In this document: positions 9,310 through 30,604 of the stretch, piece after piece
How positions within the stretch are numbered: the stretch's first letter is position 1
Layout: the number at the start of each line of letters is the position of its first letter
NCBI RefSeq assembly: GCF_025643275.1
Contig: NZ_CP089977.1
Coordinates: forward strand, 2,070,001-2,102,000
Length of the DNA stretch: 32,000 nt
Source: Moraxella nasicaprae
GTDB lineage: Bacteria; Pseudomonadota; Gammaproteobacteria; Pseudomonadales; Moraxellaceae
Direction: 5' to 3'
Translations under genes and position numbers: made by a program
The notes under the pieces: model-generated
What the model was told of the DNA's origin: nothing
What the model saw: the letters and a program-made list of their open reading frames with translations, nothing else
Database searches by the model: none

Positions 9310-9327
9310 CTCCAAAACCCCCTACAA

Positions 9328-9357: not shown

Positions 9358-9367
9358 GTAGGTCAAA

Positions 9368-9718: not shown

Positions 9719-9726
9719 GGGCGAGC

Positions 9727-12546: not shown

Positions 12547-12924
12547 AATGTCGCCTCTGCCACCAAGCTCCAAACCGCCCGCAATATCGCAATGACTGGC
12601 GATGGCTCGTGGAATGTCAATTTTGACGGCTCACAAAATGCCACAGGTGCCTTAACGCTTGCAAACAGTGGTGTTACGGCAGGCTCCTATAACTCAGTAA
12701 CGGTGGACGCAAAAGGACGAGTTACCGCAGGCTTAACCCAAACGCACGGACTTGTAACCGCCACCACCGCCACAGGGACAACCAACACCGCCACCACGAA
12801 CACTAATACATTTCTAAACATTGTGGCAAGCGGCGTAGGTCAAACTGCGTCTGTTGGCTCAAGTACGCAAATCACAGGCACAAACGGCATCAGCGTATCA
12901 TCAGACACTGCTGGTAAGCTCATT
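12547..12924 (+). repeat. Tail-fibre internal module, copy B (378 nt); a third partial copy lies at about 12940-13035
   Basis: Direct repeat of copy A at an offset of 884/885 nt. Long identical stretches are separated by a divergent Thr/Asn-rich centre. Confidence 0.85.
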
Positions 12925-13346
12925 GTTACCCGTGATAGCAACTCGCCCACCGCCACCAAACTTGCCACCGCCCGTAACATCGCCCTAACAGGAGCGGTAA
13001 CTGGCAATGTCAATTTTGATGGGTCGGGGAATGTGAGTTTGGCAACAACTGTGCAATCCGTGAGTGGCAAAGTGGTTGTTATGACTGGTACTATCGAACA
13101 TGGTGGCACCATTCCACTACCAGCAGGATTTAATGAAAATCAATGCAAGTGGATGGTTTCAATGAATGATGACAATCCAACTCGAACAACATGGGATATT
13201 AACGAAGGAGGGTATCATTTACATTATCGCCAAGAATGCTTTACGGAAGGTCGTGTGGTAACAGCTAGGACTTATCTAGGTGGACATTCTGGCTCATCAT
13301 CTGTTGTGAACAGTAAGGCTAACTACATCATCATTGGAGTGAAATA

Positions 13347-13925
13347 ATGTATTACATTTTTAATAAAGATGGTAAAAATATCGGTCAGTGCGACTTTGAG
13401 CCAAACGCAGAAGACTTAGCAAGTCGCCAAGAAAGCTATCAACTGTACAAAAATCCTTTACAACAAGGGGATGAAATTTGGCTTGTTGATGGAAAAATCA
13501 CAATCATCAGCCCGGCTCAATTAACGACAGAAGAGCTTAAAGTCCAACACCAATCCCAAATCTGGGAAGCCATCAAACAAAAACGTCACACCATCACTCG
13601 TGGCGGGGTTTATGTCAAATCGGTCAAAAAGTGGTTTCATACCGATGATAGTTCTCGCACACAGTATTTGGCATTGCAAATCTTGCCACAGCTACCGCCT
13701 GATTTAATGTGGAAAACGATGGATAACAGCTTTGTCAAATTGGATAAGGCGTTATTGACCGAGCTTGCGATGACGATTTTGACCGCCGAGCAAGCTGATT
13801 TTGCTAATGCTGAAAAGCACCGTTTGGCAATGTTACAGGCACAAAATCCCCTAGAATACGATTATTCAAAGGGTTGGACAGCCATTTATGACCCAACTGA
13901 CAAACAAGGAGCAAGCGATGAATAA
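13347..13925 (+). CDS. Tail fibre assembly / chaperone protein (gpG/Tfa position)
   Basis: 192 aa. TAATG overlap with the fibre gene stop. The call is mainly positional. Confidence 0.6.
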   Translation: MYYIFNKDGKNIGQCDFEPNAEDLASRQESYQLYKNPLQQGDEIWLVDGKITIISPAQLTTEELKVQHQSQIWEAIKQKRHTITRGGVYVKSVKKWFHTDDSSRTQYLALQILPQLPPDLMWKTMDNSFVKLDKALLTELAMTILTAEQADFANAEKHRLAMLQAQNPLEYDYSKGWTAIYDPTDKQGASDE

Positions 13926-14373
13926 AGTCTATTTAGCTTGCTATCGTGGGCGTGGCGACAAATTGACCCACCGCCTATGTGATGGCATTACCCGCTTTTT
14001 TACTCGTGGCAAATACAGCCACACCGAGATTGCCATCGCCTTGCCTGACGGTCGTTACCAATGCTATTCATCAAGCGTGCGTGAAGGTGGTGTGCGTACC
14101 AAGATAATGCCCTTAAATCCTGACAAATGGGACTTAATCGCCCTTGGTGGCATTTCGCCCGAACAAATTACCCGCTATTACCGACAAAATCACGGCTCGG
14201 ATTATGACCTTTTGGGGGCGTTGGGCTGTGTGGCGGGACTACCACAGAACGCAGATAAATTCTTTTGTTCTGAGTGGTGCTACAACGCCATTTTTGGGTC
14301 AAATCAAGGCTTTCGGTTTAGCCCCAATCAGCTTGCCGAGATTGTTCGCCATTTATCCATTTTGGATAACTAA
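13918..14373 (+). CDS. Putative permuted papain-fold (NlpC/P60, YiiX/C92-like) hydrolase
   Basis: ATG at 13918 is preceded by AAGGAG. His-containing YSHTEIAI comes before Cys-containing FCSEWCY, the order expected for permuted NlpC/P60 amidases. Recognition is only by motif. Confidence 0.45.
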   Translation: MNKVYLACYRGRGDKLTHRLCDGITRFFTRGKYSHTEIAIALPDGRYQCYSSSVREGGVRTKIMPLNPDKWDLIALGGISPEQITRYYRQNHGSDYDLLGALGCVAGLPQNADKFFCSEWCYNAIFGSNQGFRFSPNQLAEIVRHLSILDN

Positions 14374-14398
14374 TTTTGTTCTTATTTAGGAGAAATCA

Positions 14399-14920
14399 AT
14401 GCCAAATCCAAGTAACTACCCAACCCAAATCACGCCACATTTTAGCTATCGTGAGCTGACAAGAAGCGAAACTGCCAGACGGCATGGAGTTGCAAACATC
14501 CCAAGCCAAAGCGATCTTGCCAACATCACTTATACCGCTCATCAGCTTGAAAAGGTGCGTGCTTATTTAAATGACAAATACCAAAAGCCCATCGCCATCA
14601 TCGTAACTTCTTGCTTTCGTAGCGAAAGGGTTAATAAACTGGTTGGTGGTTCAAAAACTTCCGCTCATCGCTTTGGACTGGCGGCGGATTGTGATGCTAC
14701 AGGCTTTACATCAAGGGCATTTGCCAAAGAAATCATTGAGATGCGTGATAAGGGCTTGATTGCCTTTGATCAGCTGATTTTGGAATTTCCAGAAAGAGGT
14801 GATGGAGCATGGGTGCATTTGGGCTTTAAAAAAGACGGCAAAGGTCAAAGAAATCAAATCTTAACCGCCACCAAACGAAACGGCAAAACTGTGTATTTGC
14901 AAGGCTTGCAAGGAGGTTAA
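14399..14920 (+). CDS. Peptidase M15A-family peptidoglycan hydrolase (phage endolysin-type)
   Basis: SCFRSERVNKLVGGSKTSAHRFGLAADCD ... GAWVHLG carries the H-x6-D ... H zinc-ligand arrangement of M15 D-Ala-D-Ala / L-Ala-D-Glu peptidases. Confidence 0.8.
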   Translation: MPNPSNYPTQITPHFSYRELTRSETARRHGVANIPSQSDLANITYTAHQLEKVRAYLNDKYQKPIAIIVTSCFRSERVNKLVGGSKTSAHRFGLAADCDATGFTSRAFAKEIIEMRDKGLIAFDQLILEFPERGDGAWVHLGFKKDGKGQRNQILTATKRNGKTVYLQGLQGG

Positions 14921-14959
14921 GATGATTTAGATTAAACGATAAAAAAAGAAAAGACGGTC

Positions 14960-15046
14960 GGTATGACGGTGTGCGACCACCGCCATACCAGCCACGCAGT
15001 GTGAGTGCGTAAGCCCAAAGAACCGCCTGCTTAGCTAAGCGGTGTT
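14960..15046 (+). other. Cluster of three hairpins between the lysis genes and com (possible terminator/structured leader)
   Basis: H1: GGTATGACGGTG-6nt-CACCGCCATACC (11/12 bp, 14960-14989). H2: ACGCA-7nt-TGCGT (14994-15010). H3: ACCGC...GCGGT around the palindrome GCTTAGCTAAGC, followed by GTTATTTT (15022-15050). Confidence 0.4.
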
Positions 15047-15080
15047 ATTTTACCACAAAATCCATAGGATTACGCAAAAA

Positions 15081-15275
15081 ATGAAACAGCGTTGCACAAA
15101 TTGCAAAAAACTTTTAGCCATTGGCACGGGCAATTTTGCCATCAAATGCCCAAGATGCAAAACTTTAAATCAAATTAACACGCAAACCAAAGAATGCCAC
15201 GAGCATCATAACCCTTTAAATAAGGAAACCTATGAATGCTCAAAACAACCCCCAACCAACCCAATCCACCCCTAA
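15081..15275 (+). CDS. com: Com-like zinc-finger translational regulator
   Basis: MKQRCTNCKKLLAIGTGNFAIKCPRCKTLNQI has the CxxC...CxxC layout and wording of phage Mu Com (MKSIRCKNCNKLLF...IRCPRCK). Its 3' end overlaps the start of the downstream methylase gene, as com overlaps mom in Mu. Confidence 0.75.
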   Translation: MKQRCTNCKKLLAIGTGNFAIKCPRCKTLNQINTQTKECHEHHNPLNKETYECSKQPPTNPIHP

Positions 15276-16109
15276 CCCCAAACAATACCCAAAATCAAAA
15301 CCCAGTGTCGGCAGTCTCTTTGCTGGCATTGGCGGATTTGACTTGGGATTTGAAAACGCAGGTTTTTACACCAGCTGGCAAGTGGAAATTGACCCCATTT
15401 GCAAAGCGGTGTTATCAGACCGTTTCCCCCACGCCACCCAGTTTGACGATGTTAGAAACTGCTTGCCCAAAATCCAAGCCCTGCCAAATGGCGGAAGTGT
15501 CGATGTCATGTCTCCATGGCAGGCAAACGAGCAGGACTTCACGGACAGCGGACAGGCTTGTTCTTTGATGCTATCGGTATTATCCAAGCAATTAAGCCAA
15601 GATTTGTCGTGCTTGAAAATGTCACAGGTCTCATCAATTCCAACGATGGCAAAGACCTACAAACAGTCATTGAAACGCTTGCCCAATGCGGGTATGTGGG
15701 ATTTTGGCGAGTGCTGGACAGCCGTTATTTCGGAGTCCCCCAAAAACGCCGTAGAGTATTCTTGGTTGCAGGTCTTGGAGAATACCCACCATTTAGCCTT
15801 ATGGCTGACTTGGGGTCAGTGGAACGCATTTCTGGCAAGACTGAATCGCAATCGTGCTGGGCGGACGCACACCATACGCTACTGGCAGGGGTCGGCTCAT
15901 CCGCCATCAACATCAATTGTGCTGATATCATCGCTGTGCCAAATGGACGGCATCAGATGGCTGTCAGGGAGCGAACGACTGTCGATGATGGGCTTTGCAA
16001 AGGATTGGATGAGACCAACGCTTGTGAGGCTAGGACTGCGGGAAACGCCGTCTGTCCGCAAGTCGCACAGTTTATCGCAAGCCACTTGATGACGTCTTTT
16101 AACCCATAA
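15232..16109 (+). pseudogene. C5-cytosine DNA methyltransferase, disrupted (at least 3 frameshifts; catalytic PCQ motif lost)
   Basis: Motif I LFAGIGGFDLGF is in the frame of 15232. AGKRAGL, VVLENVTGL and VPQKRRRVFLVAG are in the frame of 15516. Motif IX-like SERLSMMGFAKDW (15970-16008) is back in the first frame. Motif X GNAVCPQVAQFIA (from 16041) is again in the second frame. Where GxPCQ is expected the sequence reads SPWQ (15511-15522). Confidence 0.8.
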
Positions 16110-16172
16110 TTGAACCAGCATTTCAACCATTTTGAGTGTCTTGAACGCCTTTAACTTTAAAAGGATAAGTTT

Positions 16173-17039
16173 ATGACACTCAATTCACTTTCTAACAAAC
16201 ATTACAAAACCGCCCCTTTGCCATTTACAGGGCAAAAGCGAATGTTTTTAAGGCACTTTGAAAAAATCTTAAAAGATAATGTCTCAAATGATGGAGAGGG
16301 CTTTACGGTGCTTGATGTCTTTGGCGGTTCTGGACTGCTTGCTCACAATGTCAAGCGTATCTTGCCCAAAGCCAACGTCATTTATAACGACTTTGACGGC
16401 TATGCTGAGCGTTTGGCTCATATTCCCACCACCAATCGCTTACGCCAAGAGCTGTTTGAAATCTTAAAAGACGAGCCAAGAAGTGCCAAATTATCAAACA
16501 CCACCAAAGCCAAAGCCCTAGACCATATCCGTAAAAGTGCCGACAACGGGACTTTTGTTGATGTGCAAACCTTGGCAGGTTGGTTGTTGTTTAGCGGACG
16601 ACAAGTGGGCAATCTTGATGAGTTTTTGGCAGAGTCCACCTTTTATAACCGTATTGTCAAAACTGACTACGACACCGCAGATGGCTATCTGGAAGGTCTT
16701 ATCATTGAATGCCTAGATTTTGAAAAGCTGTTACAAAAATACCAAGACACCCCAAATTGCTTGCTTCTGCTTGACCCGCCTTATGTTTGCACCGCACAGG
16801 GGGCGTATGCCAAGCACGGCTATTTTGGCATGACGAAGTTTTTACGGCTTATGCAGTTTGTGCGTCCACCCTTTATCTTTTTTAGCTCCACCAAAAGCGA
16901 GTTGATGGATTATATGGCTTATGTGGAGCAGTACGAGCCACCCACTTGGCAAAGGGTTGGGGGCTTTGAGCGGATTGTTGTCAATGCTCGCATTAACGCA
17001 CAAATTGGCTATGAAGACAATATTTTGGTTAAGTTTTAA
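16173..17039 (+). CDS. N6-adenine DNA methyltransferase (Dam/D12-class-like), orphan
   Basis: 288 aa. Has the SAM-binding motif LDVFGGSG and the catalytic DPPY (LLLDPPYV) in the alpha-group order. RBS AAGGA. No adjacent restriction endonuclease gene. Confidence 0.8.
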   Translation: MTLNSLSNKHYKTAPLPFTGQKRMFLRHFEKILKDNVSNDGEGFTVLDVFGGSGLLAHNVKRILPKANVIYNDFDGYAERLAHIPTTNRLRQELFEILKDEPRSAKLSNTTKAKALDHIRKSADNGTFVDVQTLAGWLLFSGRQVGNLDEFLAESTFYNRIVKTDYDTADGYLEGLIIECLDFEKLLQKYQDTPNCLLLLDPPYVCTAQGAYAKHGYFGMTKFLRLMQFVRPPFIFFSSTKSELMDYMAYVEQYEPPTWQRVGGFERIVVNARINAQIGYEDNILVKF

Positions 17040-17129
17040 AAAGTGAAAATTCATTACAAAAAGACTGGACTACGCTCTATGAGTACGGCAGTATGTGCCT
17101 TATAAATTAACAAGTTAAAGGTAAATGTA

Positions 17130-17576
17130 ATGTTAGACATTCAAACGGTTTCAAGTTTTGTCCAAGAGTATGGTGTGGTAGATTTTGACTGCGAGATGGA
17201 CGATGGCGTACTTTGGTTTCGGGGTGTCAATTGTTATTTGATTATTGGCAAAGTTACTGACAAGCAGGTGTTTTTGACGGTTTGGGAAGATGATGAGTGC
17301 AATGAAGTCATTGAAAACTTTGAAATCCAGAACCTTGATGAATTGAATGTTTGCTTAAAGAAATACGCCTTGATTGCTCAGGTAAGCACCAAGCAAGATG
17401 AAACCATCCAAAAACCAACCGACACCACGATGATTGATATCTACTTTAAGCTCATTAAAGACAAATTGGCAGAACATCAAATCAACCTTGATTTTGAAAA
17501 ACAAAGCCAAGCCGAAAAGCTGGTCATTCGCCACATTGAGGATAAACTGGTGGAGGTTATCAAATTTTTGCAATAA
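17130..17576 (+). CDS. Acidic hypothetical protein, last gene before the phage end
   Basis: 148 aa with RBS AAAGG. A clean terminator follows. No recognisable family. Confidence 0.5.
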   Translation: MLDIQTVSSFVQEYGVVDFDCEMDDGVLWFRGVNCYLIIGKVTDKQVFLTVWEDDECNEVIENFEIQNLDELNVCLKKYALIAQVSTKQDETIQKPTDTTMIDIYFKLIKDKLAEHQINLDFEKQSQAEKLVIRHIEDKLVEVIKFLQ

Positions 17577-17596
17577 CCAAGTAAGATAAAAAAGTA

Positions 17597-17626
17597 AATG
17601 CCCCAAGTAAGATTGGGGCATTTTTT
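17597..17626 (+). terminator. Rho-independent terminator of the last phage gene
   Basis: AATGCCCCA-8nt-TGGGGCATT followed by TTTT. Confidence 0.75.
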
Positions 17627-17649: not shown

Positions 17650-20600
17650 TTATCTTGCACATAGTGCAACAAAACCAAAAAGATATTTATTGCATAAATA
17701 GGCGAGATTTTTCGCGGCGGGCATCATCATCTCCAATCTTCCTGTATTTATTAGGGCTGCCAATCTATTTGCTTCTTCCTGATTGGCTTTTGGTGCATTT
17801 GCTCTAATTTTATTATAATAAGCCCCATTCCATCTCACCACCTCCTCAGCCATCTGCACTGCCATATTCACATCTTCTTCTGCTAGGGCTGCTACTGTCC
17901 CTGCGATGAGTTTGGCTTGGTTGATGATACTTTGTCTTTGAGAGTCTGTTAGGGTAGTGGGGTCATCTATTTGCCAATCTGCCCAGATTTCTGCCATACT
18001 AGCACCTAAGGCACCTGCTTGGCAAGTTGATCCTTGTGCTTTGGCAGATAGACAGCCTGTGAGTCCTGCGGCAAGTTTGTGGGCGATGTTGTTAATGTTG
18101 CCATCTGTATCAATGGGTTTAACCAAATGAGCAAAGGCTTGTTGATGTGATAGGGCAATCAGTTGATTACCAAGATTGGTTTTTAGGTTGTCTTCTAAGT
18201 CTGTGCCATAGATGGCAGATTGTAGTAGGCTTTTTGAAGTACTTTGGGCAATGCCTTTGATGAATCTGTCATTAAGACTTAACTGGGTTTGGTCAATGCC
18301 TTGTATGTTTAGTCCTTTATCAATCTTATTGCTGATACCAGCACTGGCGATGGCAAAGGCAAGCTGTTTGGCATTGTCTTTATTGCCAAGCTGCTTGATG
18401 GCGGCTTTGATGTTGCCTTGATTATTGATTAGGCTGATGGTGGCTTGTTCGGCAAGGGTGCTAAGAGCGGTATTTGCCATCGCTGTCAGGGTATGACTGC
18501 CCAATAAAGTACCGTTAATCGGTGCAATACCGCCTGTTGCCATTCCCATGGCAATGGTTAAGATGGCAGCCCCTGCTGGAGTAAGACCTGCTTGCTGGTA
18601 GTTCCATTCTTTTTGAGTGAGAATAAGGGTCTGCCAGTCGATGTTGTTTTGCTGGATGAGCGAATTTAGATAGCTGTATTCGGGCTGTTTGGCAAGTTCA
18701 AGGATTTGTTCCTTGATGACTTTTCTTTGGACATCTTTTTCGCTGATAGGGATTTGTACCACAAGACCGCCATCGGCAACAAAACTAGGCGGTGTACTAC
18801 CTGTAAAGCTGGGTAAAACAGCTGTTTGAGTATATTGTCCTTTATCTTGCATTCGTTGCCAAAAGACTTCATTGGCTTGTGAGGTGGTGCTTATATTGAG
18901 AGTGCTAATCGCTGGAAGTAGATGAACTTTGCCGCCTGCTTCAATATTTGCACCAGACAGATAGCTAAATATACTGCCTTGTAGGGTGGTGTCGCCAAGA
19001 GATTTGGTATTGATATAACGAGCGGTCAAAGAGGCGGGCAGGGCAGTAATTTGCAATTTGTGATGATTGGTTGTTGCATTGCCTGCTTTAACGCCCAAGA
19101 TGCGTCTTTTGACCTGAGTATCTTGATGATGCTCATGCACATCATTGACGCTAAATAGATTGATTGCACCTGTAGCAAAGACACTGATATTGCCTGTCGT
19201 ACTCATTTTGGTGGCATAAAAGTCAGCATTACTTTGATGACCTTGAGCGGTTAATGAGATATGATGGGCAGCCAAAGAAGTCGGTAGGGCGGTGGAATAC
19301 TCATCTTGGGTTTGAACATTGATGGTTTTGCGATTGAGTGCACTGCCTTTTTTGCTGCTACTTTCATCGTAGCGATGGGTATAATTGATGGCATGGTCAA
19401 CGAGTAAATGATGATTAGCAGCGATGGTTAGGTTAGACTTAGCATCAATGTTGCCAGCTTGTACAACCAAATGGACTGGCTGCCCTGCTTGATTGGTCTT
19501 GGTGGCAGATAGGCTGACATTACTGGCTGTGATTTGACTTGGCACAAACAAAGCATGGTTGCGATAATAAGAGGAGTTTTCCTTGCCCATTTCATAGATG
19601 TTGTGTGAGCCATCGACTAGGATGCTGGCGGTGATGTTTTGGTCGTTTTTGTGGTATTTGTCAGTTAATGTACCCTGTGCTTGCAAAGTGATGTTATTGG
19701 CAGCGGTCAAGTTCGATGAACGGATTAGAATGCCTTGAGCAGCATTCATGCTGATATTGTTTTGTGCTGTCAGGGTGGAGGGCTGATATTCTGTACCGAT
19801 TGGATTTCTTTTCAAGTCAGCCAGTTGGTCAGTCAATCTTGATACATCAGCTTGCAAAGCCTCCTCTTTTGATTTGGCAGGCAAATGCTTAGATAATACC
19901 GATTCTAATTCGTTGATTTTGGCGTTGGTTTGGTTAATTAGTCGGTCATAGTCAGCCACAGTCTTTGGATCTGCCGGCGAAGTGGGTGATGCTGAACGAA
20001 ATCTAATCCCTGATGGTGGGGGAGGCGGTGGGGGAGGTAAGAGAGTGTCGCCAAGCGATCTGCTGTTTTCTGGTAGAGATGGCGTGGCAGGATTGCTTAA
20101 TGCCTGTCTTTGACTATGATGCAAAGCTAGCTGAAATTGCAGAGAATTAATCTGAGTCTGCAATTGTCGATAAGACTGATATGCGTCAGATTTTTGAAAG
20201 ATTGCTAATGCTTGCTTGGCTTGTTTGAGCTGTTTTTCTATATTGTCAATCGTATGTATGGGCAATGCTTGACCATCTAGGCGATTGCTTAGAGCATCAA
20301 CCAGAACGGAGCCCTTCCCAGCATTTAGATGGATATTTTTACCTGTAATATTTGCCCCTTGTAAAACAATCTCTTGTGCGGATATGGTCAAATTTCCTTT
20401 TGGAGTAAGTTGTGCTAATTGACCTGAGCCAATACCCTTAGTGCCTTCATGACCGATTAAATCAATGTTGCCATTTTGGGACTGTAGCCATAAATCTCCA
20501 TCAGCAGATAATTGATGTGTCTGAGGTCGAATGTGCAATGCTTGCTCGCTAATAATAGATAAGTCGCCACTTAGTGTCGTAGTTTGCGGATTTTTGGTTA

Positions 20601-22197
20601 ACAGCTGTGTTTTGGTTGCATTAGCAAATAATTGACCCTGCGGCTTGATGGACAGCTTTTTGGTTTTTAATAAAATTGCACCAGCCGTCAGATTGGTCGA
20701 TCCTGTAATCGTATGCAAACCAAGTGAAACGCTACTTAAGATACCCTTAGCACTTAAATTACCACCTATATTTTGATCGCCTGTGGTATAAAGCGTTAAA
20801 TGATGATCGGCATTGGCAGTCGTGTTTTGCCAAACTAGGTCTTTTCTAGACTCAATAGAGATGTTTTTGTGTGCAGTTAAATTACTGTTAGTCAGCGTTT
20901 GATTTTGGTGTGTGTAGAGATTGATTGATCCATCTGCATTTAACTGGTTGTCAGTCATTTGTGCACTGCCAGCTAATGATGCTACAGTGATGTTGCCTGT
21001 TGTACGAATACTACTTTTACCGATAGATAGAGCGTCTTTGGTAACTAACTGGACATTGCTGGCAGTCATATTGGACTGCTGTACGCTGAGCGTCTTGGCT
21101 TTGGTTTCAATGTTGCTGGCAGTTAAATTTGTTTGATGTAGATTAAGGGTGTTGTTTGTTGTTAAAAGGATGTCTCTCCCTCCTGTCACATTGCCTGCCA
21201 AAGTTTGATTGTTAGCATTTAGGTGGATATTGCCTTGTTTGGTGCTCATCACCCCTTGTGCCGACTGGTAAATATCTGTTTGGCTACTTAGTAGGATTTG
21301 ATGATCTGCATGTATATTGCCTGTGTTTTTGATGTATCCATCACTACTGACATAGACTTGCTGAGCGGCGTTTAAGCTACCAGCATTATTGACACCAACG
21401 CCCTGATCGGTAACAATCAAACGAATATTGCCAGCATACATACCGCCAAGCTGACCTGTATCAATAGCAATGGTGGCAGCGGAAGATTTATTTGATGATG
21501 CTTGAACAGGAGTGGAAAGTCCATTGGTAATAATATTAGAGCCTGCAACAACATTAATACTATCATTGGCATGGATTTTGCCATTTAATTCCACTGCTTT
21601 AGCATATAGATTAAGATAATTGGCTTGATGCCTATCGGACATACCTGTTTGACCGATATTAATTTTACCAGCATTGATTTGATGGCTAATGTTGCCCTGC
21701 AAATGACTAACCGTGCCAGTTGTTAATGTTGCCTCATTTGTGTTAATAAACCCAGCACCAGAAACTACAATTCCTGACGGGTTGGCAATGATAACATTGG
21801 CTGTTTGTCCAGCAACCTCAATAATACCAGCAATATTGGTGGCTTTACTACTGTTAATTTCATTGATGATGGTATGGGCAGAACCTTGTTGTAAAAAAGG
21901 ATTACCCTCAATCTGATTGGCAAGCTGTGTCTGTGTACTACCACGAGCATTGTTTAGCACGACACCTATGTCATTAACATTGAACCTTTCGTATTGATTA
22001 TGAGATATGCCATTAACAGGTGTGCGAATCTGTACCACAGGAACAGCTTGTCCATTAGTATGAGTTCCTGCAAGAATAATGGGTTTTTTATTAGAATCTG
22101 CTTTTGGATCGCTGATAACTTGGGCAATGCTTGATGTTGAAATTGATAAAAGAATGGCAGAAATGGCAATATTCAAAGATGATTTTGAAAATAGCAT
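17650..22197 (-). CDS. cdiA: CdiA/TpsA filamentous-haemagglutinin-type exoprotein, copy 1; alternative C-terminal tip truncated by, and reading into, the prophage end
   Basis: 1,515 aa. Signal peptide plus TPS domain (NQYERFNV, QIEGNPFL, NPSGIVVSGAGFINT). Long FHA-type repeats. DUF637-like pretoxin segment (AGLTPAGAAILTIAMGMATGG). VRWN motif at aa 1454-1457, then only 58 further codons. The last ~24 codons lie within the putative phage end. Confidence 0.85.
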   Translation of the reverse strand: MLFSKSSLNIAISAILLSISTSSIAQVISDPKADSNKKPIILAGTHTNGQAVPVVQIRTPVNGISHNQYERFNVNDIGVVLNNARGSTQTQLANQIEGNPFLQQGSAHTIINEINSSKATNIAGIIEVAGQTANVIIANPSGIVVSGAGFINTNEATLTTGTVSHLQGNISHQINAGKINIGQTGMSDRHQANYLNLYAKAVELNGKIHANDSINVVAGSNIITNGLSTPVQASSNKSSAATIAIDTGQLGGMYAGNIRLIVTDQGVGVNNAGSLNAAQQVYVSSDGYIKNTGNIHADHQILLSSQTDIYQSAQGVMSTKQGNIHLNANNQTLAGNVTGGRDILLTTNNTLNLHQTNLTASNIETKAKTLSVQQSNMTASNVQLVTKDALSIGKSSIRTTGNITVASLAGSAQMTDNQLNADGSINLYTHQNQTLTNSNLTAHKNISIESRKDLVWQNTTANADHHLTLYTTGDQNIGGNLSAKGILSSVSLGLHTITGSTNLTAGAILLKTKKLSIKPQGQLFANATKTQLLTKNPQTTTLSGDLSIISEQALHIRPQTHQLSADGDLWLQSQNGNIDLIGHEGTKGIGSGQLAQLTPKGNLTISAQEIVLQGANITGKNIHLNAGKGSVLVDALSNRLDGQALPIHTIDNIEKQLKQAKQALAIFQKSDAYQSYRQLQTQINSLQFQLALHHSQRQALSNPATPSLPENSRSLGDTLLPPPPPPPPSGIRFRSASPTSPADPKTVADYDRLINQTNAKINELESVLSKHLPAKSKEEALQADVSRLTDQLADLKRNPIGTEYQPSTLTAQNNISMNAAQGILIRSSNLTAANNITLQAQGTLTDKYHKNDQNITASILVDGSHNIYEMGKENSSYYRNHALFVPSQITASNVSLSATKTNQAGQPVHLVVQAGNIDAKSNLTIAANHHLLVDHAINYTHRYDESSSKKGSALNRKTINVQTQDEYSTALPTSLAAHHISLTAQGHQSNADFYATKMSTTGNISVFATGAINLFSVNDVHEHHQDTQVKRRILGVKAGNATTNHHKLQITALPASLTARYINTKSLGDTTLQGSIFSYLSGANIEAGGKVHLLPAISTLNISTTSQANEVFWQRMQDKGQYTQTAVLPSFTGSTPPSFVADGGLVVQIPISEKDVQRKVIKEQILELAKQPEYSYLNSLIQQNNIDWQTLILTQKEWNYQQAGLTPAGAAILTIAMGMATGGIAPINGTLLGSHTLTAMANTALSTLAEQATISLINNQGNIKAAIKQLGNKDNAKQLAFAIASAGISNKIDKGLNIQGIDQTQLSLNDRFIKGIAQSTSKSLLQSAIYGTDLEDNLKTNLGNQLIALSHQQAFAHLVKPIDTDGNINNIAHKLAAGLTGCLSAKAQGSTCQAGALGASMAEIWADWQIDDPTTLTDSQRQSIINQAKLIAGTVAALAEEDVNMAVQMAEEVVRWNGAYYNKIRANAPKANQEEANRLAALINTGRLEMMMPAAKNLAYLCNKYLFGFVALCAR
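17677..17726 (+). mobile_element. Putative Mu-type right end (transposase-binding region, terminal ...CA)
   Basis: Read outside-in, the region gives TGATGCCCGCCGCGAAAAATCTCGCCTATTTATGCAATAAAT. My recollection of Mu attR is TGAAGCGGCGCACGAAAAACGCGAAAGCGTTTCACGATAAAT. TGA, CGAAAAA and ATAAAT fall at the same offsets. The exact terminus is ambiguous (CA at 17723, 17726 or 17729). Confidence 0.5.
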
Positions 22198-22339
22198 TTT
22201 AACTTCCTTGTAAAATTGTCAGCTCCTTCTTAGATTTAGTGAAAGTTTAGCAAATACCAAAAAATAGTTCAAGTCGGAATTGGTATGATTTTTGAGGAAA
22301 TTTAATCACGGGTTGGTGTGTATGAATACCTTATTTAAC
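17837..22339. repeat. 4,503-bp direct repeat, copy 1 (cdiA promoter plus codons 1-1453)
   Basis: Identical to 25632-30134 wherever compared. All six-frame sub-ORFs recur at a +7,795 offset with identical translations. Confidence 0.9.
22244..22272 (-). promoter_or_regulatory. Sigma-70-like promoter of cdiA copy 1
   Basis: The - strand reads TTGAAC-17 nt-TAAACT. It is followed by RBS AGGAAG 6 nt before the ATG. Confidence 0.5.
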
Positions 22340-22812
22340 TAATCTTTTATGTAACGAACTTCAAAATTATAATAATATTAAAAATCAATTATTAACTAAT
22401 TTCTTTGATTTTTGAGTTCATAAACAAGCATTTTGTTCGTCTTATTATGCCACATCTTATAGATATTATAAGTCTTTTGCTTGCAGAAATGCCAAGACAA
22501 GACTGCGAAAAAATTAAAAAAATGAGAGTTTGGTTCCCACAAGAACGGGAGAGGAGCGGTGTTCTTATGTGTCATGTAAAGCAGACTATCTGTGCAATAC
22601 AGCCTAAAACAAGGCATGGAGCATCCGCTAAAACTGATGGCACGCACCACCTTTATCCCATGGATGGATGACATCTGGGATCGGGGTATGTACGAAAGAC
22701 AGAGTGCTGATTATTACTGGCAAGGTTATAAAGATTTGTGCTTTAGAGTGCAGGCGTATGTCAATGAGAATCCCAAGCTAAGAGACATGTATCCCTAAAC
22801 CGCTTTATCAAG

Positions 22813-22844
22813 AATAAAAAACCACCATCGAAAAGATGGTGGTT
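22813..22844 (-). terminator. Rho-independent terminator of the cdiA-immunity operon
   Basis: The - strand reads AACCACCATC-TTTTC-GATGGTGGTT followed by TTTTTATT, about 50 nt after the stop at 22894. Confidence 0.75.
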
Positions 22845-22893: not shown

Positions 22894-23772
22894 CTATAAC
22901 TTACTAGCCCAAGGACCAAAATCAAACCTAGAATAATCCTCTCCAACTTGTGAAAATACATGTAAGAAATATTCATCTAGCATCTCTTGTGGGTTATTGA
23001 TTTCATAAATTCCATTAATAAAGTCGCCATCTTTTACCCAAAACATACGATGGTCATAATAGTAACACATGAGTATTAAATCATATTCTTTTGGGTCTTC
23101 ATCAGGCTTACAGCAATCTATCATAACCCTTAGATTGGGAAAACCATCTGTACGATATTTTTCTTGTTTTTCAATACCTTCAATTTCAATATCAATAAAA
23201 GCATAGGGAATTTTTTTAACCAAACTTTCAATTGCTTGCTTGGCTTTTTTGCGTGAGTTGGGTAAGTAAATATCAAATGGTTTCCAACAGCTATATGGGT
23301 CTCCGATTAGCATGGTTCCCCCTTGAATATACCTAACACTATCAGATAGTAACACGCCACCAAATGCCTTTAACCAACCATCTTTTAAATAGTTTGGTAG
23401 CCAATGGTAATAATCTTCACTAGGGTCAGTTAAAAAATAAATTCTTTGGTTTAACTCAAAAAATGTTGATAAAGATAAATTTAACTCAATTAATTCATAC
23501 CAATAAACTGTTAATTGGCAATTTAATTGGAAATCATTTAAATATTGATAGGTTTTTGGATAATGGGCTTGTAATGATAATATGGATTTGTGAATATCCA
23601 ATCCTAACTGTCTGATTTGTTCATCATAAATCCACTTATAATCACTGTTATTGATATAATCCATTTCTTTGTGCTTCATATCAGAGACAAAATCTGCAAC
23701 ATACTCAACAATTTTATTTGACATATTTTGCTCAAGTTTGTCTTTTGTATAGATAGGCATAGTTTTCTCCAT
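22894..23772 (-). CDS. Second immunity-like protein, paralogue of the 23796-24656 product
   Basis: 292 aa, acidic and Tyr/Asp-rich, with no signal peptide. Shares PKTYQ(L/Y)L and a C-terminal NNPQE.(I/L)D.Y..H(I/V)FS...D..F.P block with the upstream gene. Very AT-rich. Confidence 0.6.
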   Translation of the reverse strand: MEKTMPIYTKDKLEQNMSNKIVEYVADFVSDMKHKEMDYINNSDYKWIYDEQIRQLGLDIHKSILSLQAHYPKTYQYLNDFQLNCQLTVYWYELIELNLSLSTFFELNQRIYFLTDPSEDYYHWLPNYLKDGWLKAFGGVLLSDSVRYIQGGTMLIGDPYSCWKPFDIYLPNSRKKAKQAIESLVKKIPYAFIDIEIEGIEKQEKYRTDGFPNLRVMIDCCKPDEDPKEYDLILMCYYYDHRMFWVKDGDFINGIYEINNPQEMLDEYFLHVFSQVGEDYSRFDFGPWASKL

Positions 23773-23795
23773 AAAAACATATCTAATTCTATAAT

Positions 23796-24656
23796 CTAAA
23801 AATCCACCATATATGGAGTAAAATCAAAGTCGCCATCTTGACCCGAAAAAATATGGGCTGCGTAACTATCAATGGCTTCTTGTGGATTATTCAATCTTTT
23901 TATGCTAAATACATCAGCATTTTGGATAATATAGATATTTTCTCCCTGATCAATAGATGAGCAAAATAATTGGAAACCAGTGTTGCTATAGTCGTCCATA
24001 GTTCGTGTATCTAATAGATTTCTTAACTCAAAATAATCATTTCTATTATCCCCTGTATACTGATCGTCATCATAATCTCTCACGATGCGATGATTAAACT
24101 TAGCATCTAAAAAATCACAATATTTATCTCTATTTTGTCTAGTTTCAAAATTATCTATAATAGAGTGAATTGGACTTTGTAAAGTTGTTGGCAGACGGCT
24201 TTTAAAAGGACTAGTAACTGTGTCTTCTGCAATATGCCACGCATCTGTGTGGAGTATCCAAGAGCGAAGAACAAAAACTGGTAAATTTTTGTAAAAAATA
24301 CTATCAGGATCTTGTTCGTAGCAAGGAATTGATGGATATGATAAATAAAAACATTGATGATTAACAATTATACCAAATTGAGTAATATCTCCCATAATTT
24401 CTGGATAAGGTGATTTTTCTACAGCATAGAAGAACTCTGCTTTTAAAAGCAGCTGATAGGTTTTGGGTTGAAGGCTTTCAAAGGGTTGGACTAAATATTC
24501 CTTTAAATCGCCTTTTGAAATAAAATGGTAGCCATCATATTTTCTTTCATTGCATTTTAAACTTAGTTCCATAAATGGAATATCATCAAAATCATTTTGA
24601 TAAAAGACTTTATCACAACTTTCCTCTAACTGAGTTTTAGTCAAAAATAGTTTCAT
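23796..24656 (-). CDS. cdiI: Putative CdiI immunity protein for the HINT-HNH toxin tip
   Basis: 286 aa. The ATG overlaps the cdiA stop (ATGA), the usual cdiA-cdiI coupling. Cytoplasmic, acidic, AT-rich. Family not recognised. Confidence 0.6.
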   Translation of the reverse strand: MKLFLTKTQLEESCDKVFYQNDFDDIPFMELSLKCNERKYDGYHFISKGDLKEYLVQPFESLQPKTYQLLLKAEFFYAVEKSPYPEIMGDITQFGIIVNHQCFYLSYPSIPCYEQDPDSIFYKNLPVFVLRSWILHTDAWHIAEDTVTSPFKSRLPTTLQSPIHSIIDNFETRQNRDKYCDFLDAKFNHRIVRDYDDDQYTGDNRNDYFELRNLLDTRTMDDYSNTGFQLFCSSIDQGENIYIIQNADVFSIKRLNNPQEAIDSYAAHIFSGQDGDFDFTPYMVDF

Positions 24657-27600
24657 GATTTTTTTCTCCGCTTAAATAATTCTTGATGAACTTTTTCGGT
24701 TGCATCTTTGAGTATCTGCTGCTGTTGCCTTAACAAATATGCTCTATATTTAGGAGATATTTCTTTATTCCCCTTAACATATTTAACCCATCCATCAGTA
24801 CCTGTTTCAATCTTAGAACCCTTAGAAGAGTTAAGATGTTTAGGTAGTGGCTGTAAATTAGAAGGATTATTTATGAGCTTTTCTTGTACATCTTTTGGCA
24901 AATCATTAAAGCCTGGAATTTTTTTAAATTCCGCTCTGGGGAGAATATGATCAAAAGATGCTACAGCGTCATCGGGAAAGAATTTTTTGGTATTTGTAAA
25001 AGGATCCAAATACATTACCTTGCCAGTTTTAGCATCTACCCAATCACCTTTGATTAAAATCTCGGCAGCATTACCATATTTGTTGCCAAAATCACAACAA
25101 TTCGCATTATGCACCCACACACCCAATCTGCCCACATGATAGGTGTGAAAGTCATCCACTTCGATATTATAGACAGTGTCGGTGTGGTTGGGTAGTAGGT
25201 ATTGGCTTATAACTTCTACTTCTTGATTGTTTCTATCAAGTAGTATCATGCCTTGTTCTAGTAAAGACGCTTTTAGCCAGCCTGTATCTTTAATCCAAAA
25301 TGGGTGTTCAGCTGTGGTTTCTAAGGTTTCAATTTGACCTTGATGGTTTTTGACCGTTACTTGGAAAATGGGTTGGTCAGGTGTTGCTTTGGTGGCAATG
25401 ACAGGACGATAGCCGTATTCTAGGGTAATGTCATTTCTTGTCCAAATCAGTTCACCACCTGTGAAGGTTTCGATGGTTTTCAAGCCTTCTGATGTTTCAA
25501 TCAGGGTTCCTGCGGTAAAGCAAACGGTGCCTTTCTTGCACAGTTTAGAGATGCTATTGATAATAGCGGCACTAGCACCAGCACCAAAACCACCACCCAA
25601 TCTATTTAAACTGGTGGTTGCATTCCACCTAACCACCTCCTCAGCCATCTGCACTGCCATATTCACATCTTCTTCTGCTAGGGCTGCTACTGTCCCTGCG
25701 ATGAGTTTGGCTTGGTTGATGATACTTTGTCTTTGAGAGTCTGTTAGGGTAGTGGGGTCATCTATTTGCCAATCTGCCCAGATTTCTGCCATACTAGCAC
25801 CTAAGGCACCTGCTTGGCAAGTTGATCCTTGTGCTTTGGCAGATAGACAGCCTGTGAGTCCTGCGGCAAGTTTGTGGGCGATGTTGTTAATGTTGCCATC
25901 TGTATCAATGGGTTTAACCAAATGAGCAAAGGCTTGTTGATGTGATAGGGCAATCAGTTGATTACCAAGATTGGTTTTTAGGTTGTCTTCTAAGTCTGTG
26001 CCATAGATGGCAGATTGTAGTAGGCTTTTTGAAGTACTTTGGGCAATGCCTTTGATGAATCTGTCATTAAGACTTAACTGGGTTTGGTCAATGCCTTGTA
26101 TGTTTAGTCCTTTATCAATCTTATTGCTGATACCAGCACTGGCGATGGCAAAGGCAAGCTGTTTGGCATTGTCTTTATTGCCAAGCTGCTTGATGGCGGC
26201 TTTGATGTTGCCTTGATTATTGATTAGGCTGATGGTGGCTTGTTCGGCAAGGGTGCTAAGAGCGGTATTTGCCATCGCTGTCAGGGTATGACTGCCCAAT
26301 AAAGTACCGTTAATCGGTGCAATACCGCCTGTTGCCATTCCCATGGCAATGGTTAAGATGGCAGCCCCTGCTGGAGTAAGACCTGCTTGCTGGTAGTTCC
26401 ATTCTTTTTGAGTGAGAATAAGGGTCTGCCAGTCGATGTTGTTTTGCTGGATGAGCGAATTTAGATAGCTGTATTCGGGCTGTTTGGCAAGTTCAAGGAT
26501 TTGTTCCTTGATGACTTTTCTTTGGACATCTTTTTCGCTGATAGGGATTTGTACCACAAGACCGCCATCGGCAACAAAACTAGGCGGTGTACTACCTGTA
26601 AAGCTGGGTAAAACAGCTGTTTGAGTATATTGTCCTTTATCTTGCATTCGTTGCCAAAAGACTTCATTGGCTTGTGAGGTGGTGCTTATATTGAGAGTGC
26701 TAATCGCTGGAAGTAGATGAACTTTGCCGCCTGCTTCAATATTTGCACCAGACAGATAGCTAAATATACTGCCTTGTAGGGTGGTGTCGCCAAGAGATTT
26801 GGTATTGATATAACGAGCGGTCAAAGAGGCGGGCAGGGCAGTAATTTGCAATTTGTGATGATTGGTTGTTGCATTGCCTGCTTTAACGCCCAAGATGCGT
26901 CTTTTGACCTGAGTATCTTGATGATGCTCATGCACATCATTGACGCTAAATAGATTGATTGCACCTGTAGCAAAGACACTGATATTGCCTGTCGTACTCA
27001 TTTTGGTGGCATAAAAGTCAGCATTACTTTGATGACCTTGAGCGGTTAATGAGATATGATGGGCAGCCAAAGAAGTCGGTAGGGCGGTGGAATACTCATC
27101 TTGGGTTTGAACATTGATGGTTTTGCGATTGAGTGCACTGCCTTTTTTGCTGCTACTTTCATCGTAGCGATGGGTATAATTGATGGCATGGTCAACGAGT
27201 AAATGATGATTAGCAGCGATGGTTAGGTTAGACTTAGCATCAATGTTGCCAGCTTGTACAACCAAATGGACTGGCTGCCCTGCTTGATTGGTCTTGGTGG
27301 CAGATAGGCTGACATTACTGGCTGTGATTTGACTTGGCACAAACAAAGCATGGTTGCGATAATAAGAGGAGTTTTCCTTGCCCATTTCATAGATGTTGTG
27401 TGAGCCATCGACTAGGATGCTGGCGGTGATGTTTTGGTCGTTTTTGTGGTATTTGTCAGTTAATGTACCCTGTGCTTGCAAAGTGATGTTATTGGCAGCG
27501 GTCAAGTTCGATGAACGGATTAGAATGCCTTGAGCAGCATTCATGCTGATATTGTTTTGTGCTGTCAGGGTGGAGGGCTGATATTCTGTACCGATTGGAT

Positions 27601-29992
27601 TTCTTTTCAAGTCAGCCAGTTGGTCAGTCAATCTTGATACATCAGCTTGCAAAGCCTCCTCTTTTGATTTGGCAGGCAAATGCTTAGATAATACCGATTC
27701 TAATTCGTTGATTTTGGCGTTGGTTTGGTTAATTAGTCGGTCATAGTCAGCCACAGTCTTTGGATCTGCCGGCGAAGTGGGTGATGCTGAACGAAATCTA
27801 ATCCCTGATGGTGGGGGAGGCGGTGGGGGAGGTAAGAGAGTGTCGCCAAGCGATCTGCTGTTTTCTGGTAGAGATGGCGTGGCAGGATTGCTTAATGCCT
27901 GTCTTTGACTATGATGCAAAGCTAGCTGAAATTGCAGAGAATTAATCTGAGTCTGCAATTGTCGATAAGACTGATATGCGTCAGATTTTTGAAAGATTGC
28001 TAATGCTTGCTTGGCTTGTTTGAGCTGTTTTTCTATATTGTCAATCGTATGTATGGGCAATGCTTGACCATCTAGGCGATTGCTTAGAGCATCAACCAGA
28101 ACGGAGCCCTTCCCAGCATTTAGATGGATATTTTTACCTGTAATATTTGCCCCTTGTAAAACAATCTCTTGTGCGGATATGGTCAAATTTCCTTTTGGAG
28201 TAAGTTGTGCTAATTGACCTGAGCCAATACCCTTAGTGCCTTCATGACCGATTAAATCAATGTTGCCATTTTGGGACTGTAGCCATAAATCTCCATCAGC
28301 AGATAATTGATGTGTCTGAGGTCGAATGTGCAATGCTTGCTCGCTAATAATAGATAAGTCGCCACTTAGTGTCGTAGTTTGCGGATTTTTGGTTAACAGC
28401 TGTGTTTTGGTTGCATTAGCAAATAATTGACCCTGCGGCTTGATGGACAGCTTTTTGGTTTTTAATAAAATTGCACCAGCCGTCAGATTGGTCGATCCTG
28501 TAATCGTATGCAAACCAAGTGAAACGCTACTTAAGATACCCTTAGCACTTAAATTACCACCTATATTTTGATCGCCTGTGGTATAAAGCGTTAAATGATG
28601 ATCGGCATTGGCAGTCGTGTTTTGCCAAACTAGGTCTTTTCTAGACTCAATAGAGATGTTTTTGTGTGCAGTTAAATTACTGTTAGTCAGCGTTTGATTT
28701 TGGTGTGTGTAGAGATTGATTGATCCATCTGCATTTAACTGGTTGTCAGTCATTTGTGCACTGCCAGCTAATGATGCTACAGTGATGTTGCCTGTTGTAC
28801 GAATACTACTTTTACCGATAGATAGAGCGTCTTTGGTAACTAACTGGACATTGCTGGCAGTCATATTGGACTGCTGTACGCTGAGCGTCTTGGCTTTGGT
28901 TTCAATGTTGCTGGCAGTTAAATTTGTTTGATGTAGATTAAGGGTGTTGTTTGTTGTTAAAAGGATGTCTCTCCCTCCTGTCACATTGCCTGCCAAAGTT
29001 TGATTGTTAGCATTTAGGTGGATATTGCCTTGTTTGGTGCTCATCACCCCTTGTGCCGACTGGTAAATATCTGTTTGGCTACTTAGTAGGATTTGATGAT
29101 CTGCATGTATATTGCCTGTGTTTTTGATGTATCCATCACTACTGACATAGACTTGCTGAGCGGCGTTTAAGCTACCAGCATTATTGACACCAACGCCCTG
29201 ATCGGTAACAATCAAACGAATATTGCCAGCATACATACCGCCAAGCTGACCTGTATCAATAGCAATGGTGGCAGCGGAAGATTTATTTGATGATGCTTGA
29301 ACAGGAGTGGAAAGTCCATTGGTAATAATATTAGAGCCTGCAACAACATTAATACTATCATTGGCATGGATTTTGCCATTTAATTCCACTGCTTTAGCAT
29401 ATAGATTAAGATAATTGGCTTGATGCCTATCGGACATACCTGTTTGACCGATATTAATTTTACCAGCATTGATTTGATGGCTAATGTTGCCCTGCAAATG
29501 ACTAACCGTGCCAGTTGTTAATGTTGCCTCATTTGTGTTAATAAACCCAGCACCAGAAACTACAATTCCTGACGGGTTGGCAATGATAACATTGGCTGTT
29601 TGTCCAGCAACCTCAATAATACCAGCAATATTGGTGGCTTTACTACTGTTAATTTCATTGATGATGGTATGGGCAGAACCTTGTTGTAAAAAAGGATTAC
29701 CCTCAATCTGATTGGCAAGCTGTGTCTGTGTACTACCACGAGCATTGTTTAGCACGACACCTATGTCATTAACATTGAACCTTTCGTATTGATTATGAGA
29801 TATGCCATTAACAGGTGTGCGAATCTGTACCACAGGAACAGCTTGTCCATTAGTATGAGTTCCTGCAAGAATAATGGGTTTTTTATTAGAATCTGCTTTT
29901 GGATCGCTGATAACTTGGGCAATGCTTGATGTTGAAATTGATAAAAGAATGGCAGAAATGGCAATATTCAAAGATGATTTTGAAAATAGCAT
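24653..29992 (-). CDS. cdiA: CdiA/TpsA exoprotein, copy 2, full length with a VRWN - linker - HINT - HNH-like nuclease C-terminus
   Basis: 1,779 aa. Residues 1-1457 are identical to copy 1. The C-terminal 322 aa are unique. Confidence 0.9.
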   Translation of the reverse strand: MLFSKSSLNIAISAILLSISTSSIAQVISDPKADSNKKPIILAGTHTNGQAVPVVQIRTPVNGISHNQYERFNVNDIGVVLNNARGSTQTQLANQIEGNPFLQQGSAHTIINEINSSKATNIAGIIEVAGQTANVIIANPSGIVVSGAGFINTNEATLTTGTVSHLQGNISHQINAGKINIGQTGMSDRHQANYLNLYAKAVELNGKIHANDSINVVAGSNIITNGLSTPVQASSNKSSAATIAIDTGQLGGMYAGNIRLIVTDQGVGVNNAGSLNAAQQVYVSSDGYIKNTGNIHADHQILLSSQTDIYQSAQGVMSTKQGNIHLNANNQTLAGNVTGGRDILLTTNNTLNLHQTNLTASNIETKAKTLSVQQSNMTASNVQLVTKDALSIGKSSIRTTGNITVASLAGSAQMTDNQLNADGSINLYTHQNQTLTNSNLTAHKNISIESRKDLVWQNTTANADHHLTLYTTGDQNIGGNLSAKGILSSVSLGLHTITGSTNLTAGAILLKTKKLSIKPQGQLFANATKTQLLTKNPQTTTLSGDLSIISEQALHIRPQTHQLSADGDLWLQSQNGNIDLIGHEGTKGIGSGQLAQLTPKGNLTISAQEIVLQGANITGKNIHLNAGKGSVLVDALSNRLDGQALPIHTIDNIEKQLKQAKQALAIFQKSDAYQSYRQLQTQINSLQFQLALHHSQRQALSNPATPSLPENSRSLGDTLLPPPPPPPPSGIRFRSASPTSPADPKTVADYDRLINQTNAKINELESVLSKHLPAKSKEEALQADVSRLTDQLADLKRNPIGTEYQPSTLTAQNNISMNAAQGILIRSSNLTAANNITLQAQGTLTDKYHKNDQNITASILVDGSHNIYEMGKENSSYYRNHALFVPSQITASNVSLSATKTNQAGQPVHLVVQAGNIDAKSNLTIAANHHLLVDHAINYTHRYDESSSKKGSALNRKTINVQTQDEYSTALPTSLAAHHISLTAQGHQSNADFYATKMSTTGNISVFATGAINLFSVNDVHEHHQDTQVKRRILGVKAGNATTNHHKLQITALPASLTARYINTKSLGDTTLQGSIFSYLSGANIEAGGKVHLLPAISTLNISTTSQANEVFWQRMQDKGQYTQTAVLPSFTGSTPPSFVADGGLVVQIPISEKDVQRKVIKEQILELAKQPEYSYLNSLIQQNNIDWQTLILTQKEWNYQQAGLTPAGAAILTIAMGMATGGIAPINGTLLGSHTLTAMANTALSTLAEQATISLINNQGNIKAAIKQLGNKDNAKQLAFAIASAGISNKIDKGLNIQGIDQTQLSLNDRFIKGIAQSTSKSLLQSAIYGTDLEDNLKTNLGNQLIALSHQQAFAHLVKPIDTDGNINNIAHKLAAGLTGCLSAKAQGSTCQAGALGASMAEIWADWQIDDPTTLTDSQRQSIINQAKLIAGTVAALAEEDVNMAVQMAEEVVRWNATTSLNRLGGGFGAGASAAIINSISKLCKKGTVCFTAGTLIETSEGLKTIETFTGGELIWTRNDITLEYGYRPVIATKATPDQPIFQVTVKNHQGQIETLETTAEHPFWIKDTGWLKASLLEQGMILLDRNNQEVEVISQYLLPNHTDTVYNIEVDDFHTYHVGRLGVWVHNANCCDFGNKYGNAAEILIKGDWVDAKTGKVMYLDPFTNTKKFFPDDAVASFDHILPRAEFKKIPGFNDLPKDVQEKLINNPSNLQPLPKHLNSSKGSKIETGTDGWVKYVKGNKEISPKYRAYLLRQQQQILKDATEKVHQELFKRRKKS
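24656..25105 (-). other. C-terminal toxin domain of cdiA copy 2: HNH/EndoVII-fold nuclease-like (D-H...N...N..K pattern)
   Basis: SFDHILPRAEF...PSNLQPLPKHLNSSKGSK compares with the generic HNH pattern hHHIiP....NL..L....N/H. It possibly belongs to the DHNNK class of polymorphic-toxin nucleases (from memory). Confidence 0.55.
25106..25522 (-). other. HINT (intein-like, pretoxin PT-HINT) domain within cdiA copy 2 (aa 1491-1629)
   Basis: Starts with CFTAGTLIETSEG and ends with VYNIEVDDFHTYHVGRLGVWVHN, i.e. the Hint N-terminal Cys and C-terminal HN blocks. The +1 residue is Ala. Confidence 0.8.
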
Positions 29993-30134
29993 TTTAACTT
30001 CCTTGTAAAATTGTCAGCTCCTTCTTAGATTTAGTGAAAGTTTAGCAAATACCAAAAAATAGTTCAAGTCGGAATTGGTATGATTTTTGAGGAAATTTAA
30101 TCACGGGTTGGTGTGTATGAATACCTTATTTAAC
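25632..30134. repeat. 4,503-bp direct repeat, copy 2
   Basis: See 17837-22339. The repeat ends 142 bp upstream of the ATG (...CCTTATTTAAC) and at the V codon of VRWN. Confidence 0.9.
30039..30067 (-). promoter_or_regulatory. Sigma-70-like promoter of cdiA copy 2 (duplicate of 22244-22272)
   Basis: Same TTGAAC-17-TAAACT on the - strand. Confidence 0.5.
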
Positions 30135-30604
30135 ATAATATACATTATGCGAAGTGTAAGCAATCGACTTAGGGGATTGATGAATGCTTGATACGCACAC
30201 TTTAAACGATGTGTTTGGCATGATTACTCATCAAGTTGCTCGTTGTGATTGCTTGGGTTTGAAGCTAATGACGGCACTCATCAAGACCAACTGATGGCGA
30301 TTTGGTTTTGGTGCTAGTCATGCTTGGTCAATGTGCATTCATCAAATGTGTTAAATATACCTCATCAAATCATCAAAATAATGCCAAAAAATCAATCAAT
30401 TTGGGCGAAAACCCCACCTGTATTTATGTTAATTATCTTCACAAAATCAGTACCACATAGTCGATAATCGGTCTTGTGAATATCGCTATATTCATCTATA
30501 ATAGCTTGTTATTTGTGCAAAAATTTTGGCAAAATACTTGATTTTACGAAGAATTTGATGCCAAATCGATGTTTTTAATACACCAAACATGATAGGAGTT
30601 TTTT

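Follow-up and report, generated by a model that had tools for sequence, protein, structure and literature searches.

The 3′ end of the cdiA-1 gene of Moraxella nasicaprae and the two reading frames that follow it likely represent the end of a contact-dependent inhibition (CDI) operon, in which immA is the cognate immunity gene for the toxin tip encoded directly upstream (CT-A), and immB is an orphan immunity gene that is specific for a sibling tip (CT-B) and was probably left behind by replacement of the tip. These genes are located in a 32,000-nucleotide stretch of contig NZ_CP089977.1, which is referred to below as the window. According to this model, CdiA-1 would leave the cell through an unlinked TpsB transporter and would deliver its C-terminal CT-A nuclease into neighboring cells, as expected from known CDI biology. 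ImmA, the gene of which is translationally coupled to cdiA, would bind and block the basic CT-A domain in the producer and its siblings, and ImmB would protect the strain from neighbors that deploy CT-B on the same PT-HINT scaffold; gene context and co-variation point to these two roles. The most economical history may be that a CT-A/immA cassette overwrote an ancestral PT-HINT-CT-B/immB tip up to the ribosome-binding site of immB, such that the old immB would have come to stand behind the new immA. The two proteins are members of a new and unnamed family of predicted immunity proteins, which is divided into two putative specificity subtypes and falls within the well-known CDI scheme.

An initial annotation of this DNA had described two tandem open reading frames behind cdiA, the first of them coupled to it, and this arrangement is confirmed on the minus strand (Table 1). 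The ATG of immA at position 24656 overlaps the TGA stop codon of cdiA-1 to form an ATGA sequence, and a GGAG is located 9 nt upstream of this start. The second frame had been described as encoding 292 aa and starting 23 nt after the first, which holds for its first ATG (position 23772; immA ends at 23796). However, the second ATG (position 23760, MPIYTK...) is the start in all immB homologs, the similarity to other loci begins at the GGAG located 6 nt upstream of this codon, and the immB product is thus probably a protein of 288 aa, with a gap of 35 nt between the two genes. A terminator scan identified a strong hairpin only after immB and none that was convincing between cdiA-1, immA and immB. 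This suggests that the three genes comprise one operon, in which the cdiA promoter probably drives transcription of immA and immB as far as the hairpin (22844-22820). Beyond this terminator, the spacer that extends to a second cdiA gene, cdiA-2 (22197-22820), forms a patch of higher GC content (0.41) containing a minus-strand ORF of 92 aa (22396..22674) and, overlapping it in antiparallel orientation, a plus-strand ORF of 88 aa (22405..22671); both lack a match in Pfam.

Table 1. Features of the cdiA-1 3′ region, in coordinates of the window.
Feature	Coordinates	Strand	Description and basis
cdiA-1	24653..29992	-	1779-aa two-partner-secretion exoprotein; translation and Pfam
PT-HINT (pretoxin HINT) domain of CdiA-1, aa 1497-1630	25103..25504	-	Pfam; last residues GRLGVWVHNANCC
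CT-A toxin tip of CdiA-1, aa 1632-1779	24656..25099	-	Predicted basic His-Me-finger/HNH nuclease domain; Pfam profiles
immA (ORF-A), 286 aa	23796..24656	-	Predicted cognate immunity protein for CT-A
immB (ORF-B), 288 aa	22894..23760	-	immA paralog; predicted CT-B-specific orphan immunity protein
GGAG ribosome-binding site of immB	23767..23770	-	Junction alignment of 11 loci
Intrinsic terminator	22820..22844	-	10-bp stem, 5 G-C pairs, T-run; terminator scan; ~50 nt past immB

CdiA-1 comprises, in order, a TPS domain (Pfam E-value 1.7e-40), DUF637 (6.8e-21), a PT-VENN-like region with a VVRWN motif at aa 1453 (2.6e-6), PT-HINT (7.8e-25) and an HNH-type tip of 148 aa. The tip of the window scores 20.1 bits against GmrSD_C, just below the cut-off of 23; each of its nine aligned relatives matches this family (best E-value 8.6e-7), four match HNH_4, and a variant at one locus (L008) lies above the cut-offs of both. 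The residues D50-H51 (DHILP), N81 (NLQP) and N90/S92/K93 (NSSKG) are invariant. From its relationship to GmrSD_C and HNH_4, the tip is predicted to be a His-Me-finger/HNH-type nuclease domain; a profile search of the PDB with the tip gave no significant match. In Moraxella, orphan toxin fragments at three other loci (L001, 6646-7107 and 8954-9343; L052, 766-1485 and 2372-3061; L029, 4591-4782) start either inside PT-HINT or at its end (...GRLGVWVHNA[ND]CC), not at VENN. The recurrence of this junction at the starts of orphan fragments marks the boundary of a cassette, and the end of PT-HINT thus seems to be a recombination junction for cassette exchange. On one metagenome contig (L007, 2-2071), a CT-A tip and an immA-type gene occur on a lysine/asparagine-rich low-complexity protein without PT-HINT, which implies that, in a low-GC organism, a different delivery scaffold makes use of the cassette as well.

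The assignment of the two immunity genes is based mainly on the pairing of toxin and immunity subtypes across loci. Loci were obtained by exact-protein look-ups, from scans of genome and metagenome collections (the metagenome scan using the immB alignment) and from 42 genomes of the genus, and the stop-to-stop ORFs of all loci were classified by HMMs as immA (relatives of ORF-A), immB (relatives of ORF-B) or toxin tip. The tips fall into two subtypes with a mean identity of 39% between them: CT-A, which is characterized by NLQPLPKxLNSSKG and GWxxYVKxxKxIS, and CT-B, which is characterized by an N-terminal insert of ~25 residues, NLQPMLxSANSSKG and GWxTWxGQKV. The survey of homologs that the initial annotation had proposed shows CT-A upstream of the immA type and CT-B upstream of the immB type. 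CT-A is directly followed by an immA-type gene at 15 loci (the window, M. bovoculi, Haemophilus, Aggregatibacter-related MAGs, Bisgaardia, Pelistega and metagenome contigs), one toxin of which has a different N-terminal region, and CT-B is directly followed by an immB-type gene at 20 loci. No crossed pairing occurs among these 15 CT-A and 20 CT-B loci, counts that include related loci and do not represent independent events. The distances between stop-to-stop ORFs range from -15 to +40 nt for CT-A to immA (15 loci) and from -15 to +23 nt for CT-B to immB. When 25 non-identical pairs are compared, the identity of the toxins correlates with that of the immunity proteins (r = 0.97 overall, 0.89 within A and 0.975 within B), and the physical linkage of the two genes contributes to this correlation; in a Mantel test on the same number of pairs, none of 5000 permutations reached the observed value.

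Most loci contain a single immunity gene, either immA (e.g., L010 and L016) or immB (e.g., L008, L031, L032 and L052), and what comes after it is either the next orphan toxin fragment or unrelated genes; at no locus does the interval from the toxin to the next cassette hold another candidate immunity ORF. Apart from the window, the immA-immB tandem is found only in M. bovoculi-type sequences; in M. bovoculi, CT-A/immA/immB forms an orphan cassette within a long orphan array ending at cdiB. Orphan cassettes carry their immunity gene along, as is the case for CT-A/immA in M. bovoculi and Haemophilus and for CT-B/immB in L029, L031 and L052. Gene context and co-variation suggest that immA is most likely the cognate immunity gene for CT-A. 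The uncrossed pairing, the prevalence of single-immunity loci and the lack of CT-B in the complete genome of M. nasicaprae (see below) all speak for one of the explanations offered in the initial annotation, namely that the HNH domain is neutralized by one protein, the other being an orphan directed against a sibling allele.

The genome of M. nasicaprae is a single 2.1-Mb contig with a completeness of 99.8%, and a search of this complete genome with a CT-B query returned no CT-B, the sole match being CT-A itself (45% identity). The closest relative of immB (dN 0.027) is found in a sister Moraxella species behind a CT-B fragment, the PT-HINT part of which is nearly identical to that of the window; thus, there are CT-B-armed Moraxella that use the same scaffold. 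In M. porci and an uncultured Moraxella, immB stands alone beside thiolase and CoA-transferase genes. The dN/dS values of immB, toxin-less copies included, are 0.13-0.27, which argues that the gene has been kept for a function; its frame is intact and its GGAG is present. In the junction alignment of 11 loci, the homology to CT-B/immB begins at the GGAG of immB. Since the homology starts at the ribosome-binding site, no CT-B remnant is left between immA and immB, which fits the tip-replacement model (Zhang et al., 2012; PMC3482391). On this comparative evidence, immB is probably an orphan immunity gene left over from the replacement of a toxin tip. In another sister Moraxella species, a decayed CT-B tip occurs together with an immB that survives as two pieces of 79 and 61 aa (L055, 1495-3070), indicating that the module is dying in that species.

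The initial annotation had regarded the two proteins as highly diverged paralogs that share three sequence blocks. The divergence and all three blocks are real (PKTYQ; FYLSYPS/IYFLTDPS; and the C-terminal NNPQE..D.Y..H.FS...FDF.P), with the correction that the register of the second block had been off by one, and the relationship extends beyond the blocks that had been listed. In a BLASTP comparison, only the C-terminal 57 residues align (E 1e-6), whereas the alignment of the two family profiles by hhalign spans 247 columns (probability 97.7%, E 1.3e-12); ImmA and ImmB are thus full-length paralogs with ~19% identity. Across loci, the identity between immA-type and immB-type proteins is 17-29%. 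An exhaustive profile search yielded 133 representative clusters at the 50% identity level, mostly of 280-310 aa, and the traceable members belong mainly to Moraxellaceae, Pasteurellaceae and Alcaligenaceae. The named database members, which originate from Pelistega, Actinobacillus, a Pasteurellaceae bacterium, Oligella and Acinetobacter rudis, are all designated “hypothetical protein” except for one “tetratricopeptide repeat protein” fusion of A. rudis. No further members came from a profile word-index search with the alignment of 82 sequences or from 400 genomes sampled evenly across the class, which suggests that the family is sparse.

The absence of a recognized family, as noted initially, was borne out: nothing near the threshold was found for either protein in Pfam and NCBIfam, the Pfam matches of 82 full-length members of the superfamily were due solely to fused Sel1 or DUF1963 domains, and sequence and profile searches of the PDB (with 22-sequence and 82-sequence profiles) gave chance matches only. 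The structure prediction that had been suggested was informative only to a limited extent, in that AlphaFold2 monomers built from the family alignments were poor (mean pLDDT 62 and 56) and a Foldseek search of the PDB with both models gave nothing below E = 0.5; these models lend no structural support to any binding mode. The two proteins are indeed unusually large, as had been pointed out. Internal duplication was considered as a cause of the doubled size and rejected, since the hhalign probability between the N-terminal and C-terminal halves was at most 1.1% in all three alignments. Several members of the family are fusions, namely two with Sel1/TPR repeats (P0038, 372 aa, and P0039 of A. 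rudis, 514 aa) and one A4 member with DUF1963, and these may be polyimmunity-type fusions.

The composition and charge of the proteins were also compared with those of the toxin. As the initial annotation had remarked, immA and immB (GC content 0.317 and 0.311) are more AT-rich than the conserved body of cdiA (0.427); however, the CT-A tip is itself low in GC (0.342), and the tip-plus-immunity cassette as a whole, beyond the two ORFs alone, is compositionally foreign. ImmA (pI 4.59, net charge -20) and ImmB (pI 4.8, net charge -15) are acidic and the CT-A tip (pI 9.5, net charge +9) is basic, and their charges are complementary. Neither immunity protein contains a signal peptide or a membrane segment (Kyte-Doolittle maxima of 0.84 and 0.86 in a 19-residue window), and their N-termini are hydrophilic; both are most likely cytoplasmic, as expected for immunity against a nuclease toxin.

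The tandem arrangement in the window might instead mean that ImmA and ImmB act together, as a hetero-oligomer or sequentially, and that both are needed against CT-A, as the initial annotation had also considered. The two genes are adjacent and probably co-transcribed, and the inheritance of CT-A/immA/immB as one block in the orphan array of M. bovoculi and on short contigs (L002-L006) would fit a joint function there. However, the predominance of loci with one immunity gene counts against such a function: outside the bovoculi/nasicaprae lineage, at least 10 loci have immA alone behind CT-A, immB occurs alone behind CT-B in 20 loci overall, and M. porci has immB without immA or any toxin. Joint action against CT-A is thus very unlikely. 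A somewhat less improbable, though still unlikely, role of ImmB would be that of a redundant or broad-range second immunity protein that also neutralizes CT-A, given that CT-A and CT-B have a common catalytic core (DHILP, NLQP, NSSKG and GW; 28-47% identity) and that the conserved C-terminal block is common to both immunity subtypes. Such cross-protection is difficult to reconcile with the tracking of toxin subtype by immunity subtype, to which there is no exception, with an identity between the two immunity subtypes that is typical of specificity divergence, and with the generally allele-specific nature of CDI immunity (PMC3150448).

It is also highly improbable that the two genes encode something other than immunity proteins, such as a toxin chaperone, an activator, a selfish passenger or other accessory or unrelated cargo. 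The proteins do lack homology to characterized immunity families and a structural match, and they are about twice the usual size of CdiI. On the contrary, genes of both types are located directly downstream of a toxin with translational coupling and co-vary with its subtype, toxin-less orphans persist under purifying selection, the acidic charge complements that of the basic nuclease, and no alternative immunity ORF separates the toxin from the next cassette in any locus. It is tempting to speculate that this family of ~285 aa represents a new immunity fold that neutralizes GmrSD_C-like HNH toxins in an unusual manner, for instance through DNA mimicry by the acidic C-terminal block (FLDTR ... 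EAIDxY..H ... FDFxPY), or that ImmA and ImmB have become an obligate heteromer in the bovoculi/nasicaprae lineage, although we regard this as rather unlikely.

The preferred model, a cognate immA followed by an orphan immB, has precedents in several known systems. In the CDI loci of E. coli EC93, Yersinia and Neisseria, the tip and its immunity gene likewise form an exchangeable cassette past a conserved junction motif (Poole et al., 2011; PMC3150448). The orphan cdiI genes of such loci are co-transcribed with the main operon, as experiments on an orphan cdiI of E. coli have demonstrated, and protect against the toxins of other strains (PMC3150448), properties that are predicted for immB. By contrast with those loci, the orphan of the window has fully lost its toxin fragment, so that immB directly follows immA; the orphan immunity gene is a paralog of the cognate one; the junction is the end of PT-HINT (WVHNA[ND]CC) rather than VENN; and the immunity proteins, of ~286 aa, form part of a family that lacks annotation. 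Where several immunity genes trail a toxin gene in a string, they have been interpreted as relics of former toxin tips (Zhang et al., 2012; PMC3482391). The cdiA-1 locus resembles these polyimmunity loci in that closely spaced immunity genes on the same strand are found 3′ of a full toxin gene, and differs from them in that there are just two such genes, which are mutually homologous and belong to a family that is absent from the Imm families represented in Pfam.

The genes for proteins of SUKH and other Pfam Imm families occupy the same position, directly behind the HNH-type tips of polymorphic toxins; however, ImmA and ImmB have no detectable similarity to them, are roughly twice as long and contain no detectable internal repeat. 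Operons of nuclease colicins may carry a second immunity gene, for example the E8 immunity gene on ColE3-type plasmids. Such operons are similar to the present one in that behind a nuclease gene come first a cognate acidic immunity gene and then a homologous immunity gene for a sister toxin that is not encoded. On the other hand, the toxin is a soluble colicin there and a two-partner-secretion CdiA here, the colicin immunity proteins are unrelated and much smaller (~85 aa), and the colicin operons are located on plasmids.

These results offer a probable function for “hypothetical proteins” encoded beside HNH-type tips in commensals and pathogens of animal respiratory and mucosal surfaces, including Moraxella, Haemophilus, Actinobacillus, Pelistega, Oligella and Acinetobacter rudis, and the two toxin/immunity specificity groups could help to predict which strains inhibit which. 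The locus would also provide a clean natural case of toxin-tip replacement in which the old immunity gene is left in place. The combination of a cognate and an orphan immunity gene is already known, and the current understanding of contact-dependent inhibition is unchanged.

The surroundings of the locus contain further cdi-type elements. A 4519-bp direct repeat (17826-22343 and 25621-30139; 99.93% identical, with 2 mismatches and 1 gap) spans both cdiA genes of the window, beginning 146 bp before the ATG and ending at the VVRWN motif, and beyond this repeat cdiA-2 (22197..17650; 1515 aa) has an unrelated tail of 58 aa. Beside this truncated gene, positions 1-17600 of the window are prophage-like and encode a D12-class adenine methylase, a fragment of a C5 methylase and an M15 peptidase. 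Neither cdiA of the window has a cdiB/TpsB gene next to it. On the same contig, 22-42 kb before the start of the window, there are two ShlB-family genes (2028197-2029264 and 2047008-2048021), one of which lies beside a PT-HINT ORF (2048813-2049187), a 226-aa fragment. The distant ShlB-family genes and the PT-HINT fragment imply that a second cdi-type locus exists and that the transporter is unlinked.
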